A DNA stretch of 33,345 nt from a virus. Its lineage: Duplodnaviria; Caudoviricetes. Each line of letters opens with the position of its first letter. Within the stretch, counting starts at the first letter, position 1. Shown piece by piece: positions 1 to 13,357 of the stretch. The position numbers and the translations under genes are program-made. The stretch lies in the IMG/VR virus record IMGVR_UViG_3300049009_000441, positions 1-33,345 of that record; one strand, 5' to 3'. Below the pieces are notes generated by a model. The model was not told where the DNA came from. It worked only from the letters and a program-made list of their open reading frames with translations, and searched no databases.

Positions 1-1
1 C

Positions 2-313
2 AAGCACCCCGACCACCTTCCGCTTGGTGATACGCCACCCGCTCCCAAGCCTAAACGCAGTGCTAAGCAAAGGGCACTGGCAAAGGGCAAAGCTGAAGAA
101 GGCGATTCAAGATTCTACGTTGTCCGCGTTACGAGCATCCGAAAGCGCCTCATTGATACCGACAACCTGGTTCCAAAGTGGCACGTCGATTCCCTCCGTT
201 ACGCTGGAATCCTACCAGACGATGCGCCAGAGAGAGCGCGAATTGAAACAAGCCAGCGCAAAGTCCAAGAAGGGGAAGAGGAACACACGCAAATCGAGAT
301 CCTGATCCAATGA
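2..313 (+). CDS. RusA-like Holliday junction resolvase, catalytic part (5' partial; frame 2, absent from the ORF track)
   Basis: My translation of frame 2 is open from the window start: ...FYVVRVTSIRKRLIDTDNLVPKWHVDSLRYAGILPDDAPERARIETSQRKVQEGEEEHTQIEILIQ*. It carries the RusA DxDN..K...D...G...DD signature. Its stop (311-313) overlaps the next ATG (ATGA). Confidence 0.75.
   Translation, partial: KHPDHLPLGDTPPAPKPKRSAKQRALAKGKAEEGDSRFYVVRVTSIRKRLIDTDNLVPKWHVDSLRYAGILPDDAPERARIETSQRKVQEGEEEHTQIEILIQ
3..305 (+). CDS. Overlapping frame-3 ORF with RusA-like N-terminal motif (LPSLN...HW.RAKLKK); start uncertain, possibly 5' partial
   Basis: Frame 3 is open from position 3 to 305. The PSLN strand-helix motif is typical of RusA-family N-termini. 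The ORF lies entirely within the frame-2 ORF. Confidence 0.45.
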   Translation, partial: STPTTFRLVIRHPLPSLNAVLSKGHWQRAKLKKAIQDSTLSALRASESASLIPTTWFQSGTSIPSVTLESYQTMRQRERELKQASAKSKKGKRNTRKSRS

Positions 314-588
314 AATCCCGCCCTGATGACCTCTTCCCATCCATCCGCCTGGTTCTGACAAACCACTGGTATGATGAAACAATATCCGGCCGCAAACGCA
401 TCGAGTACCGGGTAATGACTGCCAGATGGATGAAACTGATCCATGCCCGCCGTGACACCCTTTGCTTCGTCACCTTTTCCCGGGCTTACACCAAAACCAC
501 CACCACCTATTCCATCACCCACATCGATCTAGGAACCTGCCCAATCCCCGGATGGATTGGCCTCTTCATTCGCATCCACTTCAAATGA
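310..588 (+). CDS. ASCH/PUA-like domain protein
   Basis: WYDETISGRKRIEYR matches the ASCH GxKxxExR motif. ATGA-coupled on both sides. Confidence 0.75.
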   Translation: MKSRPDDLFPSIRLVLTNHWYDETISGRKRIEYRVMTARWMKLIHARRDTLCFVTFSRAYTKTTTTYSITHIDLGTCPIPGWIGLFIRIHFK

Positions 589-971
589 TCTTTCCAGAAT
601 CCCACCGCCACCAACTCCCCGGTTACGAGTCCGCCAAGGGCGACACCTACGGGGTTTTTCTCATCCCGTCCGGGTCCGACGTTCTCCTTTGCATCGCCAC
701 TGATGGAGAATGCCCCGGCCTCACCGGCACCCAATGGGAACACGTCAGCGTCTCCGTTCGCAATCGCCGGGGTGTTCCCCTGTCACGATGCCCCACATGG
801 GATCAAATGTGCGTTGTGAAGTCTGCCTTCTGGACGGATGACGAGTGCGTCATGCAACTCCACCCACCGCGGGCTGAATATGTGAACCTCCACAAGCACT
901 GTCTCCACCTTTGGAAACCCGTGAAGCTCTCCATCCCGCAGCCGCCCTCAATCCTCGTTGGTCCCAAATGA
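585..971 (+). CDS. Conserved phage hypothetical protein, His/Cys-rich (128 aa; start corrected to 585)
   Basis: ATGA overlap with the ASCH stop. Motifs WEHVSVS, RCPTWDQMC and HPP..EYVNLHKHCLHLW are typical of a recurrent phage family. Confidence 0.75.
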   Translation: MIFPESHRHQLPGYESAKGDTYGVFLIPSGSDVLLCIATDGECPGLTGTQWEHVSVSVRNRRGVPLSRCPTWDQMCVVKSAFWTDDECVMQLHPPRAEYVNLHKHCLHLWKPVKLSIPQPPSILVGPK

Positions 972-5893: not shown

Positions 5894-8800
5894 TTATCGG
5901 CTGAAAGAGCCGCTTCTTTCTTTCTTTTCAATCTTATCCGCCCCGCCGCCCATCCACCAGTAAACCGGTGAACCGACAAACGGAAGCGCCCGCCAGGTCT
6001 CGAACTTGCTCACGTCGATGTCATCCCCCTCCGCAATCTTCATGGCAGATTCCACCATGTCGGTTGCAGGATAAACGATGAACGGCGCCGGCGGAGCAAT
6101 CAGAAGCAGTGCCGCCTCCACCGGATTCTTGCTCTCACGGAACCGCCACAATGCCCACCGGTTGACGCCCAGCAGCTTGAACAGGTTGTCCACCATGATG
6201 TCATCCATCACCGGCCGCCGCCCCATGATGAAATCCTTCAGCCAGTCGATTGGGCATCCAATCATGAACAGCAGCCCGGCCAGGTGAATCAGGTTGCGAG
6301 CGCCTTCCATCTTCTGGACCGCGTTACCGTTGACGATCTTCGTGATGCCTTCACGCCGAAAGGAATCAATTTGCTTCAGGGTGAAACTCTTCAGCATGTA
6401 AAAGATCCGGCCATTCGGGTGACGAAGGTAATACTCCGGATATTCCGATTGAGTCAGGGGTTGGTAATCCGCCAGCACCGTGTAAACGGCAAACAGCGTG
6501 TCCTCGGTCTTCTTGCCCGCGGCCAGATCCCGGACGACTTGGGCCCCAGTGGCAGGATCAAACGCCCGCTCGATGATTGCCCGACTCCGCCCTGACAGAT
6601 TGCCGGCCGCCGCCTCCCGCTCCATCCGCCGGAACTTCGCATTTACCAGCGTCTCCTTCCCAATCATGTCCAGGTAATGAATGCCCACCAGTTTGAACGT
6701 GCGATCAAGTGCACTGTGTAACTTGCCCGCATCCCTGAACTCTTCAGCGATTTGATCCAGCCCGAGATCCGCCCGGGTAATCTTCGACTTCCGGGCCACC
6801 GCCTGCCCGCCAGCCACCATCGTGTCAAAAACCCCGTTCTCGTACAAACTGAACGCCACATCGGTCACCTGTGAAATGGCAGAAGTAACATGCCCCATCG
6901 TTGTGATGTAGGCCATGGACTTGAAATTACTCACAAACGTCGACTGGCCCCCGCGCTGAAACCGTGCTTCGAGAATGGACTGAACTTCTGCCTGTTGCTG
7001 ATAGGTGATGTCACCCGTGGCAATCAAGTCCTCCACATAGGCGCCAATCGACGCCTCCAGCGCCAACTGGGAAGAGACCGCGCCGGGAGCACCGGCCACC
7101 GGCACCGTGAACTTACCGAAGAAGCGCCGCTTCTCAATGGCCTGGTTCAGGCTCTCAACGTAGGAAACCAAGGCCTCCACGCTATCCGCATAGAACTGAT
7201 CCGCATCCACTCCGACGACATCCGTCTTGCGGGCCTTCAGATTCCCCGGCTTTGACTCAGGACGGCGGAACCCACGCAGCACCGAATTGACCACCTCAAT
7301 GCGTTCCTCACGCGAAAGAATGCGCCCTTGGTCCTGTGCTTTCTTGGCCGCCTCTTGAAGCGCTTTCTCGATTCTCCCCTGTTCCGGCTGGCCGTAATAG
7401 TGATTCATCAGCCCATCCAGATCATTCACCTTGCGCGGGAAATAGTTCTCAATTTCACCCACGTCATAACCGGCCGCAATCGCCCGGGCCCGTGTGGCAG
7501 ACAGAACTTGCTCCACCCGGGCGAATGACCCCGCCATGCCGTAGGCATTCAGGACCGCATCCCGTGAAGCAGTGTCCCCGTTCTTCAACGCCAGATCCAA
7601 GATCCGCGCCTCCCGCTCAGGCAGTGCCTCAAATGCCAGCATCCAAGGTTTAACCGCCTCGAAGTCCACCTTCAGCGCCCGGCCTATGTCGAAGTCCAGC
7701 CGGCGCAACCTTTGCCCCAGATTGGCCTTGCCGCTGATTGCCTGCAATCGGGACACAAGCGGAACAAACAGCTTGGCCGCCAGTGATGCCTCCGTGGACT
7801 TGCGCACTGCCTTTGCCCTCGCCGGCAAAGGTTGGCCGCTATTGAGCCGGGACAGGAGCTGCGAGGATGCCGCCAGGCGCTTGGCCTGAATCCGGTTGAA
7901 CATCGCTTGGTTCGCCTGCGTCTGGTTCTGGGGAATCCCCGTGGTCGCAAAGGTAACCTCCGACTGAGGCACCCTGGAAAGGTTGAACGTTGCCGCGGTG
8001 AACGTAGCCACTGCCGCCTTTCGATCTTCAATGGTTCCCCCCGCATACTCGATGACGGGAATTCCCGCCTTGGTGAGCAAGGCCTTCACATCGCCCGGGG
8101 TGCCTACCGGAACCACGGCCCCCATGAACTCCGTCAGTTTTACCACACGCTGGGGCTTGGCCTCGAAGTAGGGAACCGGCGAGTAAAGCAGCGCCTTGGC
8201 CGCATCGATACCCGTCGCAATGACATCGCTCGGAACATCCTTAGAGTTGAACCCCGCTGACGACAATGCGGACCGGAACCCCTTTTCCGTTAAGCCGGAC
8301 TTCGCCGCCTTGGCCATTGCCTTCATCGACGCATCCAGCGCCGCCCAGGTATCGACGTCACCCTTCCAGTTCTTTCCAGCGAAGTACTCAATCACCCCGT
8401 CCCGATATTTCCCAGTCAAGGCCTTCGTCTTTTCCTCAATCGCATTCGCCTCAGTTTCCGAAACCAGGTTATGCGCAGCATTCTTCATGTGCTGAACGCT
8501 GGAAAACTGCGTGGTAGCCGCCGCCCGGGCCGCCCCTTCGCCAAAGGTCATCGCCTTCTCCTTGTTCCGCACGGTCCCCTTCATGGCCTCCGCCATGTTC
8601 TCCGCCGTGTAGGCGACCTTCTTCTTCCCGTGCTTGATGAATGGCTCCCCGTAGTAGGGAAGGATCTTGTCCTCGATCCACGTCTTCAGTTCATCCTCCC
8701 GGCCTTTCACCGCCGCGGTAAGAGCATCCCGGCTGGCATAGCGATCCACCTCGATTTTGCCCATGTTCCGCACCGCCCGGATAAGCCCAATCTGCTTTCC

Positions 8801-11800
8801 CACCTTAAACATGCCTTCGTCATCAATGACCGCCTTCTCCCATGACCGGCGCAAGTAATCCGCATCCTTCTCGTCCTTGATGTACTCCTTCAGGTAGTCA
8901 TCATGCGCAGTCACCAAAGCTTCAGTCAGAAGCTTACGACTGTCCTTGTCGTCAAAGTTCGGGTCCACGTTTCCACCACCAGCAAGGAACGCCTGGAAGC
9001 TAGGCATCAGAATCTCGGGAGCTTCGACTGACATCGGCCGGGTGATTGGCTCCACGACGATTCCCTTCTCCGCCAAGAATGCCGCCATCACCGCAGGCGA
9101 ACGAACCGCCTTTCCAATGACGCTCTGAGGATCGGGACGATTCACCATCCCATCCCAAATTTCCTCGATAATGCCGTTATCCTCGAACTTCTTGGCGAAG
9201 GGCTTCAGGGGATCAATCGTGCGCTGGGCATCCTTCGTCTTAACCTTGTTGTATTCCGGCCGTGGTGCACGCGGGGAATAGGCATCAGCATCAAACACCG
9301 GCTCCTTTGCCGGGTCTACCATGCGAGGATCGGCAATCAGCGTAATGTCACCGAACCCGCTGAATGCTTCGCCCGCCTTCACCACGCCAATGGACGGCAC
9401 CGCAAACCCACCCATGCGAGAAATCACCCGCAGGCCTTCCGCCGTGGTGTTGTGCAAGGCCATCAGCCCGCCGCCGCTTTGCTCGATCGAGAACGTCGGG
9501 AGTTTCAGCCAGCGAAGATCCACCGTCTCACTCGCGTACTTCTTCCCCCTGGCCTCACTCACGGTCACGATCCCATCAAATCCAGCGTTTACCACCGCCC
9601 GGGATAATGTCCGGCCAGTCTTCCCGCCAAAAGCCCGGGAAAGCCGCGCCTTCCACCCGTTCTCGCCATACCCTACCCAGTCCAGAACCAAGGGGCTTGC
9701 GAAGTCGACGGTCCCCGTTTCCAGCCCATCAAGCGTTTTCACGGTATCCCCAACCGGCGCCAAGTAACGGCCGGCCGGTTCGATGTCTTGGCCAAACTCG
9801 GCGCCCAGTCTCGGGGCCTTCTTCGTGTTGCGTACATACCGGAAGCTCACCGGCTTCCCGGTCTCGAACACACGGCCAGTCTCCAAATCAGTAAACTTCT
9901 CCACCACTCCCTCAATCTTGGCCAAGTTAAACGTCTGCCCCTTGAACCCGAGGTTTGTCGGCATCACCGGCTCGCCGCGTGTGCTCTGATCGAGTGCCAT
10001 CAAAAGGTCATTCGTCGTGTCGAACTCAAACCCGTCATCAGCAACCAGTGTCTCACGCAACTCGTCCAACGGTTTCCCCTTCTTGCGGAACAGACGCAGC
10101 TTTTGCTTGGTGTCCAAGTTTTCCATCAGGGACTTGAGCTCACCCCTAAACATCGGTTCTTGGGAAGGCGCCAGTAGGCCGCCCGCCCGGATAACCGCCG
10201 CCTGAAGCTCAGAATCATCACCCCATCCAATGTCCTGCCGGATGCTGGCCATCTCTTCAGCTACTTGTGAGTCATGGAACCACTTCAGCGCCACATTGAA
10301 CGCGCCGTCCATGGTCTTCACCGTTCCCTCGATTTCATTACCCTCGGGATCGGTTACCGTGTACCCGGCCTCATCGTTGCCAGTGATCTTGGGGAAATCC
10401 TCTTCTTGCCCGATGGAGTCCTTCATCTCCTGGTCAAACTCAGAAGCAACCGGGGCGGCCTCACGGTTACCTTGCGCGGCCGTTTGATAGGACTGATCCA
10501 GCGTCCGCTTCTCCGCAGTCAAGCTGGCCTCCGTCTCCCCTTCATACTTCTTCAGCAGGCGCTCGGCCTGTGGGGAAAGCTCCACATTCAGGTCATAAAC
10601 CGGGATGTCGTTAAGCATCTCCGCAACAAAGGTCTCCTCCTCCGTCATTGGCCCGTTTTCGGTGATCGTCTCCTTTCCGCCAAGGCGATCATCGACCACC
10701 GCCTGAAGCTCCTCTTCGAGTTGAGCCTTCAGAAAATCCCGCTCACGCATCGCCGCACCCTCGGCTTGACGATCGGACCGCAGTTGCGCCAGTGCCGCCT
10801 TCTGTTCCTCATCGGCCAGTTGCGCCTTCAGGTCCTGATACCCCTGATAGGACCGCAGCACACGCTCAGTCTTTGCCCTGGTATCCGTGCCGTCCGCCTC
10901 GAACACCGCATTGAGCTCGGCCTGCCGTGTGGACCGCGCCGCATCGGCCTTGCTTGCGTCCAGTTGTGAACGCACCGCCCCAGTCGATACCTCACCCAGC
11001 GCCCCCTTCATCAGGGTTTCCAGATCCGCGTCCAGCTTACCCTCACGCAGGAGCTTCTTCATCTTCGCCGCGCCCCGGATGACGGTCTTCAGGCGCTCGC
11101 CCAAGGTCCGCAGCCACTTCCCCCAACCGCCAGGAAGCGCCACCTTGCGCCGGGCCAGTGCATAATCTACCACCCGCTTGGAGAACCATTCGATGTTGGC
11201 CCGGTCTAAATCCTCACCCGTCAGGTTTGAAGCAACGTCCGCCTCACCATTTACAGAATGCCATTTCACCCGTGCATCATTCAGTTCTGCCGGTGCCAGA
11301 TTCTGATCCAGATAGGCTTTTTTGATATAGGCCTCAGAAACCTCTTCCACGGCCACCGTTGGGTCCGCCGCCTGCGCGACCTTCGCCACCATTTGAAAAA
11401 CCCCCTCCGTCGTCGCCTGCACATCAGCCGACCCTTGGATGCTCGCGGTTTCCAGCGTGGTCTCCTTGGCCAGCCCATTCACCAGCTTGGCGACATCCAG
11501 AGCGCCCTGGGCTTGCTCCTTGGTCATCAGCCCCTGATTAACTCGATCCATCAAGGTCTCCGGAATAGCCGGCCGCTCAACCTTGAGCTCGGCACCAAAC
11601 TTCTCTTGAAGCCCGGCCAGCGTTTCCTTCGTGGCCTGTTCATTGACCGCCCGCTGTTTCAGCGTGTCCAGAAATTGGCGCTCCTCCGGATTGGTCATGT
11701 CCAAAGGGGAGAACGTCCCGAGCTCGGTATTTTCCACCACCGGCACCCCATCAATCATGCCAATTTTATACCCGTCGACTTCCAGCCCATCGGCTGAAAC

Positions 11801-13357
11801 GAACTTCTCCCGAAGAACCCCGTCGTTGTACTTCGCCATGGCATCCTGGTTCCCATTCGCCGCGGCCACCAATAACCGGCCAACTTCAGGGGATGCGGCC
11901 GTTGCCATCAGTTGCTCATCCGTCTTGACCTGACGCAACACATTGAAGTCTGCCGGGGTCAACGTCTGCCCCTCCTTCGTCGTCAGGTACTTCTCCCCCT
12001 TCGACACCGCCATGTTTTGGTCAACGGCCTCCAAAGACGTGATCCCACCCGCAAAGAAGAAGCCCAGCGTGAAGGCGGACACCGATTCAACCAGGCGCTG
12101 TTTGGCGGCCTGCTCAGTGAATAGCTCGCGCTTTTCATCATAGGTCTGTTGCGCAACAAAGTCGTTCCAGAAGTTTTGCGCCGGCTCAGTCAATCCCTCC
12201 TCCACACCAGAGGAAAGCCCCTGCCGTGCAAACTGCTTGGCAAAGTCTCCAAACGATACCTTGCCCGCCATCTTTGGCAGATCCCCCAGAACCTTGTCCA
12301 TCAGGCGCTCCATACCGAACGCACGTTCAAGAACCATTTGGGGACCGGCTGATGCCAAGTTGGCGGAGAACGCTTTTTGAGGATCATACGCATCCCCCTC
12401 TTTCGCCATCCGCTCACTTTCCACATCGGCAAAAAATGCCGACTCCATGCCAAACGCTCCCACCGGCCCCAGCGCCGCCAATGCCGCAGTAGCCGGGACA
12501 CTGCCCACGCTCGCCATGAATTGGCCCAGGGTTGATTTTTGAAACTCGGGATTAACCCCCGCCCGCTCCATCGCGCCGCCGCTCAACTCGTACCAGAATT
12601 TTGAGAGGTTCCGATATTCATCGGACACGTCCTTACTCGTTGAGTTCGCAAACTCCTTTGCCCGCTCCCGGTTGGTCTCATCATTGACGCCGCGAATCTT
12701 CGCCATGTCGGAGTCAATTTTTGCCAGCCGCTCCTTCTGCTTGTCGGTCAACACCACTTCCGTGTCCTTCGGCTGGAAAGGATGATTCACCAGTTGCTCA
12801 CGCTCGCGGTTCAAATCGAGATACGTCCGATTTTCGAAGGGCGACTTCATCCGCCCAGGTTCCGCCGCAATCGTTGCCGCTTGGGAATAGATGCCGGCCG
12901 GGATCTTTTGAGCAAACCCCGTGAAGCCGCCACCGGCCGCCCGGGCTGATTGCTCCGTGTTCACCATCAGCGCCCCTTTGCCCACCTTCGCCAATCCCTC
13001 AGTGCCAGAAAAGGCTTCAGGGGTTTCGGTCTCCGTTACCGGCGCCTGCGTCTCGCTCCCCTTGTAGAAGCTGGAAATCTTGTCATAGGCTTGACTTGCA
13101 CTGCCGTTCCCAAAGAACCGGCCAGAAATGTTTTCGAAGTTGGCCAGGATGTCCTTGCGCGGGATGCCGGTGCGCCGGGACAACCAGAGGGACACGAATT
13201 GCTGATCCACCATTTCATTCGCCCCGGACTGCTTCGCTTGCGAGTCAAGGGACTCGGCCCCCGTCAGCGTCTCGAATTTAGTGCGGGCCTCTTCCGGCAA
13301 GCGGCCAAGGCGAGTTTCACGGGACTCAAACAGGGGAGCAAGTTCGTCAGTATTCAT
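5894..13357 (-). CDS. Large internal virion (DNA ejection) protein, polyvalent, with two ART-like modules
   Basis: 2487 aa in the T7 gp16-equivalent position; GVEEGLTEPAQ and ENYFPR motifs typical of large ejection proteins; ART-like segments at about 7991-9922. Confidence 0.8.
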   Translation of the reverse strand: MNTDELAPLFESRETRLGRLPEEARTKFETLTGAESLDSQAKQSGANEMVDQQFVSLWLSRRTGIPRKDILANFENISGRFFGNGSASQAYDKISSFYKGSETQAPVTETETPEAFSGTEGLAKVGKGALMVNTEQSARAAGGGFTGFAQKIPAGIYSQAATIAAEPGRMKSPFENRTYLDLNREREQLVNHPFQPKDTEVVLTDKQKERLAKIDSDMAKIRGVNDETNRERAKEFANSTSKDVSDEYRNLSKFWYELSGGAMERAGVNPEFQKSTLGQFMASVGSVPATAALAALGPVGAFGMESAFFADVESERMAKEGDAYDPQKAFSANLASAGPQMVLERAFGMERLMDKVLGDLPKMAGKVSFGDFAKQFARQGLSSGVEEGLTEPAQNFWNDFVAQQTYDEKRELFTEQAAKQRLVESVSAFTLGFFFAGGITSLEAVDQNMAVSKGEKYLTTKEGQTLTPADFNVLRQVKTDEQLMATAASPEVGRLLVAAANGNQDAMAKYNDGVLREKFVSADGLEVDGYKIGMIDGVPVVENTELGTFSPLDMTNPEERQFLDTLKQRAVNEQATKETLAGLQEKFGAELKVERPAIPETLMDRVNQGLMTKEQAQGALDVAKLVNGLAKETTLETASIQGSADVQATTEGVFQMVAKVAQAADPTVAVEEVSEAYIKKAYLDQNLAPAELNDARVKWHSVNGEADVASNLTGEDLDRANIEWFSKRVVDYALARRKVALPGGWGKWLRTLGERLKTVIRGAAKMKKLLREGKLDADLETLMKGALGEVSTGAVRSQLDASKADAARSTRQAELNAVFEADGTDTRAKTERVLRSYQGYQDLKAQLADEEQKAALAQLRSDRQAEGAAMRERDFLKAQLEEELQAVVDDRLGGKETITENGPMTEEETFVAEMLNDIPVYDLNVELSPQAERLLKKYEGETEASLTAEKRTLDQSYQTAAQGNREAAPVASEFDQEMKDSIGQEEDFPKITGNDEAGYTVTDPEGNEIEGTVKTMDGAFNVALKWFHDSQVAEEMASIRQDIGWGDDSELQAAVIRAGGLLAPSQEPMFRGELKSLMENLDTKQKLRLFRKKGKPLDELRETLVADDGFEFDTTNDLLMALDQSTRGEPVMPTNLGFKGQTFNLAKIEGVVEKFTDLETGRVFETGKPVSFRYVRNTKKAPRLGAEFGQDIEPAGRYLAPVGDTVKTLDGLETGTVDFASPLVLDWVGYGENGWKARLSRAFGGKTGRTLSRAVVNAGFDGIVTVSEARGKKYASETVDLRWLKLPTFSIEQSGGGLMALHNTTAEGLRVISRMGGFAVPSIGVVKAGEAFSGFGDITLIADPRMVDPAKEPVFDADAYSPRAPRPEYNKVKTKDAQRTIDPLKPFAKKFEDNGIIEEIWDGMVNRPDPQSVIGKAVRSPAVMAAFLAEKGIVVEPITRPMSVEAPEILMPSFQAFLAGGGNVDPNFDDKDSRKLLTEALVTAHDDYLKEYIKDEKDADYLRRSWEKAVIDDEGMFKVGKQIGLIRAVRNMGKIEVDRYASRDALTAAVKGREDELKTWIEDKILPYYGEPFIKHGKKKVAYTAENMAEAMKGTVRNKEKAMTFGEGAARAAATTQFSSVQHMKNAAHNLVSETEANAIEEKTKALTGKYRDGVIEYFAGKNWKGDVDTWAALDASMKAMAKAAKSGLTEKGFRSALSSAGFNSKDVPSDVIATGIDAAKALLYSPVPYFEAKPQRVVKLTEFMGAVVPVGTPGDVKALLTKAGIPVIEYAGGTIEDRKAAVATFTAATFNLSRVPQSEVTFATTGIPQNQTQANQAMFNRIQAKRLAASSQLLSRLNSGQPLPARAKAVRKSTEASLAAKLFVPLVSRLQAISGKANLGQRLRRLDFDIGRALKVDFEAVKPWMLAFEALPEREARILDLALKNGDTASRDAVLNAYGMAGSFARVEQVLSATRARAIAAGYDVGEIENYFPRKVNDLDGLMNHYYGQPEQGRIEKALQEAAKKAQDQGRILSREERIEVVNSVLRGFRRPESKPGNLKARKTDVVGVDADQFYADSVEALVSYVESLNQAIEKRRFFGKFTVPVAGAPGAVSSQLALEASIGAYVEDLIATGDITYQQQAEVQSILEARFQRGGQSTFVSNFKSMAYITTMGHVTSAISQVTDVAFSLYENGVFDTMVAGGQAVARKSKITRADLGLDQIAEEFRDAGKLHSALDRTFKLVGIHYLDMIGKETLVNAKFRRMEREAAAGNLSGRSRAIIERAFDPATGAQVVRDLAAGKKTEDTLFAVYTVLADYQPLTQSEYPEYYLRHPNGRIFYMLKSFTLKQIDSFRREGITKIVNGNAVQKMEGARNLIHLAGLLFMIGCPIDWLKDFIMGRRPVMDDIMVDNLFKLLGVNRWALWRFRESKNPVEAALLLIAPPAPFIVYPATDMVESAMKIAEGDDIDVSKFETWRALPFVGSPVYWWMGGGADKIEKKERSGSFSR

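Follow-up and report, generated by a model that had tools for sequence, protein, structure and literature searches.

The window, that is, the whole stretch of DNA analysed, is the entire linear virus record IMGVR_UViG_3300049009_000441, 33,345 bases long and about 84% complete; the genes for terminase, head-tail adaptor, and major head and tail proteins found on it indicate a tailed phage. The contig begins, at its very first base, with a locus where two reading frames of the forward strand are open over the same DNA, as a preliminary description, prepared from the sequence without database searches, had noted for about 300 bp. Frame 2 extends from position 2 to a TGA stop at 311–313 (2–313) and frame 3 from position 3 to a TGA stop at 303–305 (3–305), while frame 1 contains several stops over the same stretch. 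Because the window comprises the whole record, both frames lose their 5′ ends at the contig start; the frame 2 product is about 145 aa long in the nearest relative, and frame 3 possesses its own ATG in relatives.

Small genes and two HNH genes follow the locus. A 92-aa gene 3′ of it (310–588) matched phrog_625 (E 1e-4), and the second HNH gene (1259–1774) was assigned to HNH_3. Neither gene is present at the related locus L088, which is 95.3% identical to window positions 1–319 without gaps and directly abuts a DUF7694 gene; the same direct junction was found in a contig of the public run X4, and both genes look like variable inserts. Farther along, a 2,487-aa ORF on the minus strand (5894–13357), located between the tail and internal virion genes, gave only a partial match, to phrog_22978, a family of unknown function. 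No second RusA-like gene was found in the window, but given the completeness of the record another resolvase gene could be absent from it.

RusA, the Holliday-junction resolvase of E. coli DLP12 (PDB codes 1Q8R, 2H8C and 2H8E; PF05866; phrog_34 and phrog_1682), carries out Mg-dependent cleavage of four-way junctions. The preliminary description had assigned the catalytic half of such an enzyme to frame 2 (the catalytic frame below), and both homology searches and modelling agree with this assignment. A PHROG search with frame 2 of the window matched the RusA-like family phrog_34 (E 2.6e-5), as did 31 of 61 cores (best E 2e-8); PF05866 was matched by one core of the 61 (E 0.0034), and nothing exceeded the Pfam cut-off for this family in five genomes carrying the split genes. 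The frame contains the strand YVVRVTSIR (116–142), which together with an Arg-rich RKR segment occupies 116–148, the motif R-K-R-L-I-D-T-D-N-L-V-P-K (140–178) and the putative active-site residues (155–223). By sequence, the Asp at window base 155 is the equivalent of D70 of RusA, that at 161 of D72, the Asn at 164 of N73 and the Lys at 176 of K76; further acidic residues are an Asp at 188–190 and a DD pair at 218–223, corresponding to D90/D91. The roles of D70, D72, N73, K76 and D90/D91 in RusA have been described (PMC1636454). Among the 62 relatives defined below, the equivalents of D70, D72 and K76 and the Asp at 188 are kept in all 62, and those of N73 and D91 in 61; unlike in RusA, the D90 position varies in the split family and is occupied by Asp in 19 of 62. 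Compared with RusA, the Lys is also one residue farther from DxDN, and the Arg next to D70 (RusA position 69) is displaced: the residue before the first catalytic Asp is Leu or Ile in 59 of 62 relatives, and an Arg three residues before it is kept in 61.

AlphaFold 2 modelling of the L088 catalytic chain predicted a strand at residues 81–89, the counterpart of the strand named above, a helix at 101–109 and strands at 121–129 and 137–144, with pLDDT values of 85–96 over residues 81–145; the front of the model is unstructured except for two short helices. The best match of the model among 48,161 chains was RusA (1q8r_A), residues 77–145 of the model being placed on residues 51–117 of RusA, although the similarity is weak (Z 4.8, compared with 4.4 for the unrelated row ranked next; rmsd 2.9 over 66 residues); Foldseek ranked RusA second (probability 0.85, E 0.25), and searches of the PDB with sequence profiles of either frame did not find RusA. 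This weak match of a predicted fold agrees with the active-site motif. Since the model matches only residues 51–117, RusA residues 1–50 are absent from the catalytic chain; of the four-stranded sheet and two helices of RusA, the model supplies three of the strands and one of the helices, and nothing in its N-terminal region takes the place of the two absent elements. In the window this region is a low-complexity linker (2–110) lying over the strand and helix of frame 3, stop-free and without amino-acid constraint. A FPxxSxxF-type motif occurs in the catalytic leader of 24 of the 62 relatives (L088 1375–1470), where it was modelled as two short helices. A different leader, RWTEEQYQD, is found in a divergent clade (L179 1345–1390) and resembles, at 73% over 15 residues, the start of a nuclease-like and unrelated-looking ORF in four other viral contigs (L183–L186, 1501–1545); it seems to be a borrowed module.

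Frame 3, the +1 frame relative to the catalytic core, had been described as carrying the strand, PSxN turn and helix with which RusA begins. It encodes a predicted first strand FRLVIRHPL (18–44), with a kept alternating hydrophobic pattern, a PSLN turn (PSxN; 45–56), the counterpart of RusA residues around S13–N15, and a long amphipathic helix HWQRAKLKKAIQDSTLSALRA (75–137), the counterpart of RusA helix α1, whose second half overlaps the frame 2 strand in the DNA. A TLxSY helix and a basic tail follow (201–305, with TLESY at 201–215); this region is open, but weakly constrained. The residues of RusA around S13–N15 contact DNA, and residues 13–16 and R35 take part in DNA binding according to structure and model (PMC1636454). 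The +1 protein was compared with a profile of six single-chain RusA-like proteins, four of them annotated as RusA-like, which had been reached via the catalytic frame of L179. Residues 6–38, starting with the predicted strand, aligned to positions 3–37, the start of the profile (E 9e-5), in a short match of 33 columns with a probability of 59 and six templates; the catalytic core aligned to the same profile at positions 63–119 (E 3e-7), and the third frame, used as a control, gave no match (E 0.63). The comparison thus upholds the assignment of frame 3 to the front of the enzyme. AlphaFold 2 modelling of the +1 chain predicted two long helices, one of them at residues 25–49, and the first strand was not formed in this single-chain model. 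An ESM Atlas search with the +1 protein gave no usable match, a Foldseek search of its model against BFVD found nothing at E ≤ 0.001, and a tblastn search against INPHARED returned no match.

Four locus scans yielded 177 loci besides that of the window. Among these 178 loci, 167 fitted the catalytic pattern, 120 were distinct and 111 spanned the whole gene; clustering of the latter at 90% left 62 relatives with pairwise identities of 41–89% (median 59%), which are non-independent and form 26 clusters at 70%. Of the 11 loci outside the catalytic pattern, nine could be assigned a +1 offset by pattern, and L074, inspected by eye, has the same layout; L149 is truncated. With offsets counted from the first catalytic Asp (window base 155 = 0), PSxN lies at −110 nt in all 62 relatives, with P and S conserved in 98% and N in 100%; within the frame 3 helix, H and W are conserved in 94%, R in 97%, K in 98% and the last L in 100%. 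More divergent members have PSxN at −107, −122 or −155, in every case still in the +1 frame. In a redundant set of 195 loci, the N-terminal piece is in the +1 frame relative to the core in all 182 that could be scored; two of the other 13 are cut, and 11, including the single-chain controls, had no core match.

In protein searches, the core retrieved 1,054 clusters (at 90%) and the +1 chain 421 (at 50% identity). Seven of 11 genome loci carry Verrucomicrobiota names, and a search of 401 genomes sampled from the phylum of genome G001 gave three matches: the known one, a new split member (L238) and an unrelated one. The genome of Verrucomicrobia bacterium LW23 contains the split gene twice (L174 and L177); in both copies the spacing is 45 nt longer, with both frames still open. 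In BK063671.1, a virus whose host is given as Methanomicrobiales, the locus (L179, 1345–1692) is annotated in GenBank only with the +1 ORF (1391–1678, hypothetical), the catalytic ORF having been missed.

The +1 frame is open over −141 to +108 in 60 of the 62 relatives, where synonymous recoding of the catalytic frame would give 4.1, and from −137 to +109 in 110 of the 111 whole-gene loci, so that frequent stops in frame 3 of homologues, named in the preliminary description as counter-evidence, are absent. The third frame is open over −141 to +108 in none of the 62 relatives, and in flanking genes, taken as a control, the +1 frame is open over an equal length in 23 of 273 stretches. Ratios of substitution rates (omega), based on pairwise counts on present-day sequences in 41 disjoint pairs, indicate purifying selection in both frames. 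Over −138 to −48, omega is 0.13 in the +1 frame and 1.78 in the catalytic frame, which is unconstrained there; over −48 to 0 both frames are constrained (0.10 and 0.08, respectively), this being the region where, as had been pointed out, the frame 3 helix overlaps the frame 2 strand; over 0 to 66 constraint on the +1 frame is weak (0.31, p 0.005), compared with 0.05 for the catalytic frame, and over 66 to 108 the +1 ratio of 0.60 indicates no detectable constraint. Selection, therefore, passes from the +1 frame to the catalytic frame along the locus. The weakly constrained downstream part has many changes that alter the +1 protein but are silent in the catalytic frame, and the third frame shows no comparable selection signal in the 41 pairs. 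The codon at −27 ends in T in all 62 relatives, and Leu is therefore kept in the +1 frame. Past the helix, the +1 frame terminates prematurely at +13 in L062 and at +25 in L238, which makes its tail dispensable in some lineages. The catalytic frame, in turn, is open across −138 to −66 in 62 of 62 relatives, against 34.3 expected; a leader that is stop-free yet unconstrained is as expected if ribosomes cross it from an upstream start. No PSxN motif lies upstream in frame 2, where the leader of close relatives is a linker.

The two starts that the preliminary description proposed to look for upstream of the window are both present in L088, where the stop of the upstream gene is followed by the +1 ATG 4 nt later and by the catalytic ATG 21 nt later, 142 and 125 nt, respectively, before the position of window base 1. 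The catalytic frame has an ATG in 56 of the 62 relatives and an ATG, GTG or TTG in all of them; the +1 frame has an ATG in 59, against 34.2 expected, at 32 different offsets. Coupling to the upstream stop is mixed: the catalytic ATG lies within −11 to +12 of it in 23 of 54 loci, the +1 ATG in 16 of 54, and both in seven. In the main clade, a Shine–Dalgarno (SD) signal was found at neither start, with little at other genes, and SD scores and the base at −3 did not separate true from false starts. The divergent clade of BK063671.1 and L181, which are identical at the SD DNA and hence count once, has AAAGGA upstream of the catalytic ATG and GAGGAGG upstream of the +1 ATG, with anti-SD pairing energies of −5.6 and −12.2 kcal/mol, respectively; judging by sequence, both sites appear ribosome-binding-like, the strong one doubling as coding sequence of the other frame. 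In L193, the two frames start at overlapping ATG and GTG codons preceded by GAGGGG.

Two overlapping frames, both open and selected and resembling the two parts of RusA, make it likely that the enzyme comes from two separately made proteins. The two open and selected frames, their fixed relation, the separate start codons and the complementary homology to the halves of RusA are direct observations; on these grounds a probability of about 0.7 can be given to the reading that two separately initiated chains complement each other to form one RusA-like resolvase. Both frames would be translated from separate starts, the +1 chain supplying the first strand, the DNA-contacting PSxN turn and helix α1, and the catalytic chain the remaining three strands, helix α2 and the active site. 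The strand of the +1 chain would be inserted into the sheet and its helix would lie beside α2; by analogy with the RusA dimer (PMC1636454), two such chain pairs may form a 2:2 assembly. The assembled enzyme would cut Holliday junctions during phage replication or recombination.

The catalytic chain might instead act alone, as a reduced homodimer, with the +1 protein having another job, such as a basic DNA-binding accessory protein or a regulator or inhibitor of the nuclease. The confident modelling of the catalytic core by itself fits this possibility, as does the basic helical +1 tail, which does not exist in RusA and is kept open in 61 of 62 relatives; it is nevertheless an unlikely one, since the conserved part of the +1 protein is exactly what the catalytic chain misses, including counterparts of RusA residues that act in DNA binding, while the tail shows weak constraint and is missing from L062 and L238. 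Complementation by two chains would also hold, in a modified form, if only the catalytic frame had a true start and the +1 chain were produced by a +1 shift from the leader or by re-initiation, so that the chains shared an N-terminus. Many loci do open the +1 frame just after the catalytic ATG, and three of the 62 lack a +1 ATG, but the excess of +1 ATGs, the presence of an ATG, GTG or TTG in the +1 frame of all 62 relatives, the position of the first +1 ATG upstream of the catalytic ATG in nine of 53 loci, L088 among them, and the separate SD-like site in L179/L181 render such a shared start quite improbable.

A programmed −1 frameshift near window positions 90–115, joining frame 3 to frame 2 and leaving the unshifted products as by-products, would yield a single chain, and the preliminary description had offered a −1 frameshift near 100–120 as the alternative to the two-chain model that it preferred. 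The order of the parts permits such a fusion, heptamers of the A AAA AAG type occur at −68 or −59 in seven of the 62 relatives, and one database protein, P0119, unites the two parts in a single chain. Canonical slippery heptamers, however, are no commoner than in the control phases (10 of 62 relatives, at five offsets, versus nine and three), and none is present in the window, as had been noted at the outset; the conserved slippery heptamer at a single position that is characteristic of programmed −1 frameshift genes was not found. The shift would have to precede the catalytic strand (about −40), yet the +1 helix is under selection to −27, and the catalytic frame is kept open upstream and has its own starts, whereas the downstream frame of a frameshift gene lacks an open 5′ end and start of its own. 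P0119, the only one of 162 proteins from catalytic queries to join both parts, is a singleton on a 1,355-base contig, switches frame after HW and lacks helix α1, while all 41 of its viral relatives have the split form (recognised by the −110 pattern in 40 and by eye in one). A frameshift thus appears improbable, and the preference for two chains is supported by the separate starts, the upstream-open catalytic frame and the helix/strand overlap selected in both frames. Among 150 +1 proteins, two (P0192 and P0221) switch into the last strands of the catalytic frame, without the active site; together with P0119 they may be errors or real variants or rearrangements in the allotment of strands between the chains. 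These three frame-switched database proteins and the truncation of the window gene at the contig end could hint at an assembly error, a pseudogene or a chance second frame. The contigs of four public runs contain only substitutions and no indels over window positions 1–600; the suspected region 100–120, where no 1-bp indel was found, is covered by the contigs of runs X1–X3, of which X1 may be the sample that the window came from, and X2 and X3 represent strains differing at 9–12 bases. No RNA run was among 24 listed, which does not bear on expression. This origin has a negligible probability and was rejected in view of the openness of the +1 frame, the selection in both frames and the single frame relation in all scored loci.

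For the two-chain gene pair, sequence comparison indicates that a single-chain gene was probably split by an out-of-frame deletion. Single-chain RusA-like proteins, such as gp68 of actinophage DumpsterDude, gp53 of Footloose, gp82 of DyoEdafos and gp42 of OnionKnight, as well as L182 and L191, likewise begin with a strand, PxxN and an HW-type helix and contain DxD..K..D..G...DD further on. They hold these elements in one frame, and the PSxN Asn is separated from the first Asp by 49–53 codons in four of five measured proteins and by 61 in the fifth, whereas in the split loci the distance is 102 nt, that is, about 34 codon-equivalents, out of frame. A deletion of about 45–60 nt would have taken out the end of α1 together with the linker of a single-chain gene; reading of the front half would then have continued in the +1 frame of the catalytic codons, giving it a new helix end, while the catalytic half would have acquired an unstructured leader with a new start upstream. 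The match of the +1 protein to the single-chain profile extends to about −42, beyond which the sequence would be new under such an origin; no intermediate between the single-chain and the split gene was found. We lean towards the fuller account, in which a single-domain enzyme was split out of frame, its halves persist as fully overlapping genes, each overprinted on the codons of the other, part of α1 was rebuilt from the catalytic strand as read in the +1 frame and an active enzyme reassembles in an amount set by two competing starts, and in which this arrangement occurs in hundreds of viral clusters, including Verrucomicrobia prophage-like loci and a virus assigned to methanogenic archaea, with gene callers usually seeing one frame.

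The split family shares with RusA the D-x-D-N...K...D set, the Arg-rich segment, the modelled strand-helix-strand-strand C-terminal half, the PSxN turn and the long helix. Unlike RusA, a single 120-aa chain, it has these parts in two overlapping frames, with extra segments on both chains, and the one-polypeptide homodimer of RusA is not encoded in any of the 182 scored loci. The gene layout is unusual for a RusA-like enzyme, departing both from the single-chain organisation of the family and from the two features of −1 frameshift genes considered above. The nearest genetic precedent, as far as portions of PMC6139136 and PMC5295617 describe it, is that of the lambda Rz/Rz1 spanins, two subunits of one complex encoded by embedded or overlapped genes; nested pairs of this type are recognised by two selected frames on one DNA, each with its own start codon, as seen in the split locus, but Rz and Rz1 are separate proteins that meet and not halves of one known single-domain fold. 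In the portions covered here, PMC8788219 proposes out-of-frame fission as a route to new genes (ORgenes) and PMC8227390 lists 11 viral overlaps that encode interacting proteins; these portions describe no case of both halves of one enzyme domain in overlapping frames, and the main text of PMC8788219 mentions neither RusA nor resolvase. No description of a split RusA was found among the open-access papers searched, mostly at the level of titles and abstracts.

If the reading is correct, the locus is a natural, testable case of frameshift rescue without restoration of the frame, and it shows how overprinted sequence becomes structural. Whereas fission normally leaves the two halves of a gene next to each other, one small fold appears here to have its halves stacked on the same DNA, each under selection. 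A widespread family of phage resolvases would be mis-annotated because gene callers keep one frame, as in BK063671.1, and adding the second chain could serve to switch on a two-chain junction nuclease.
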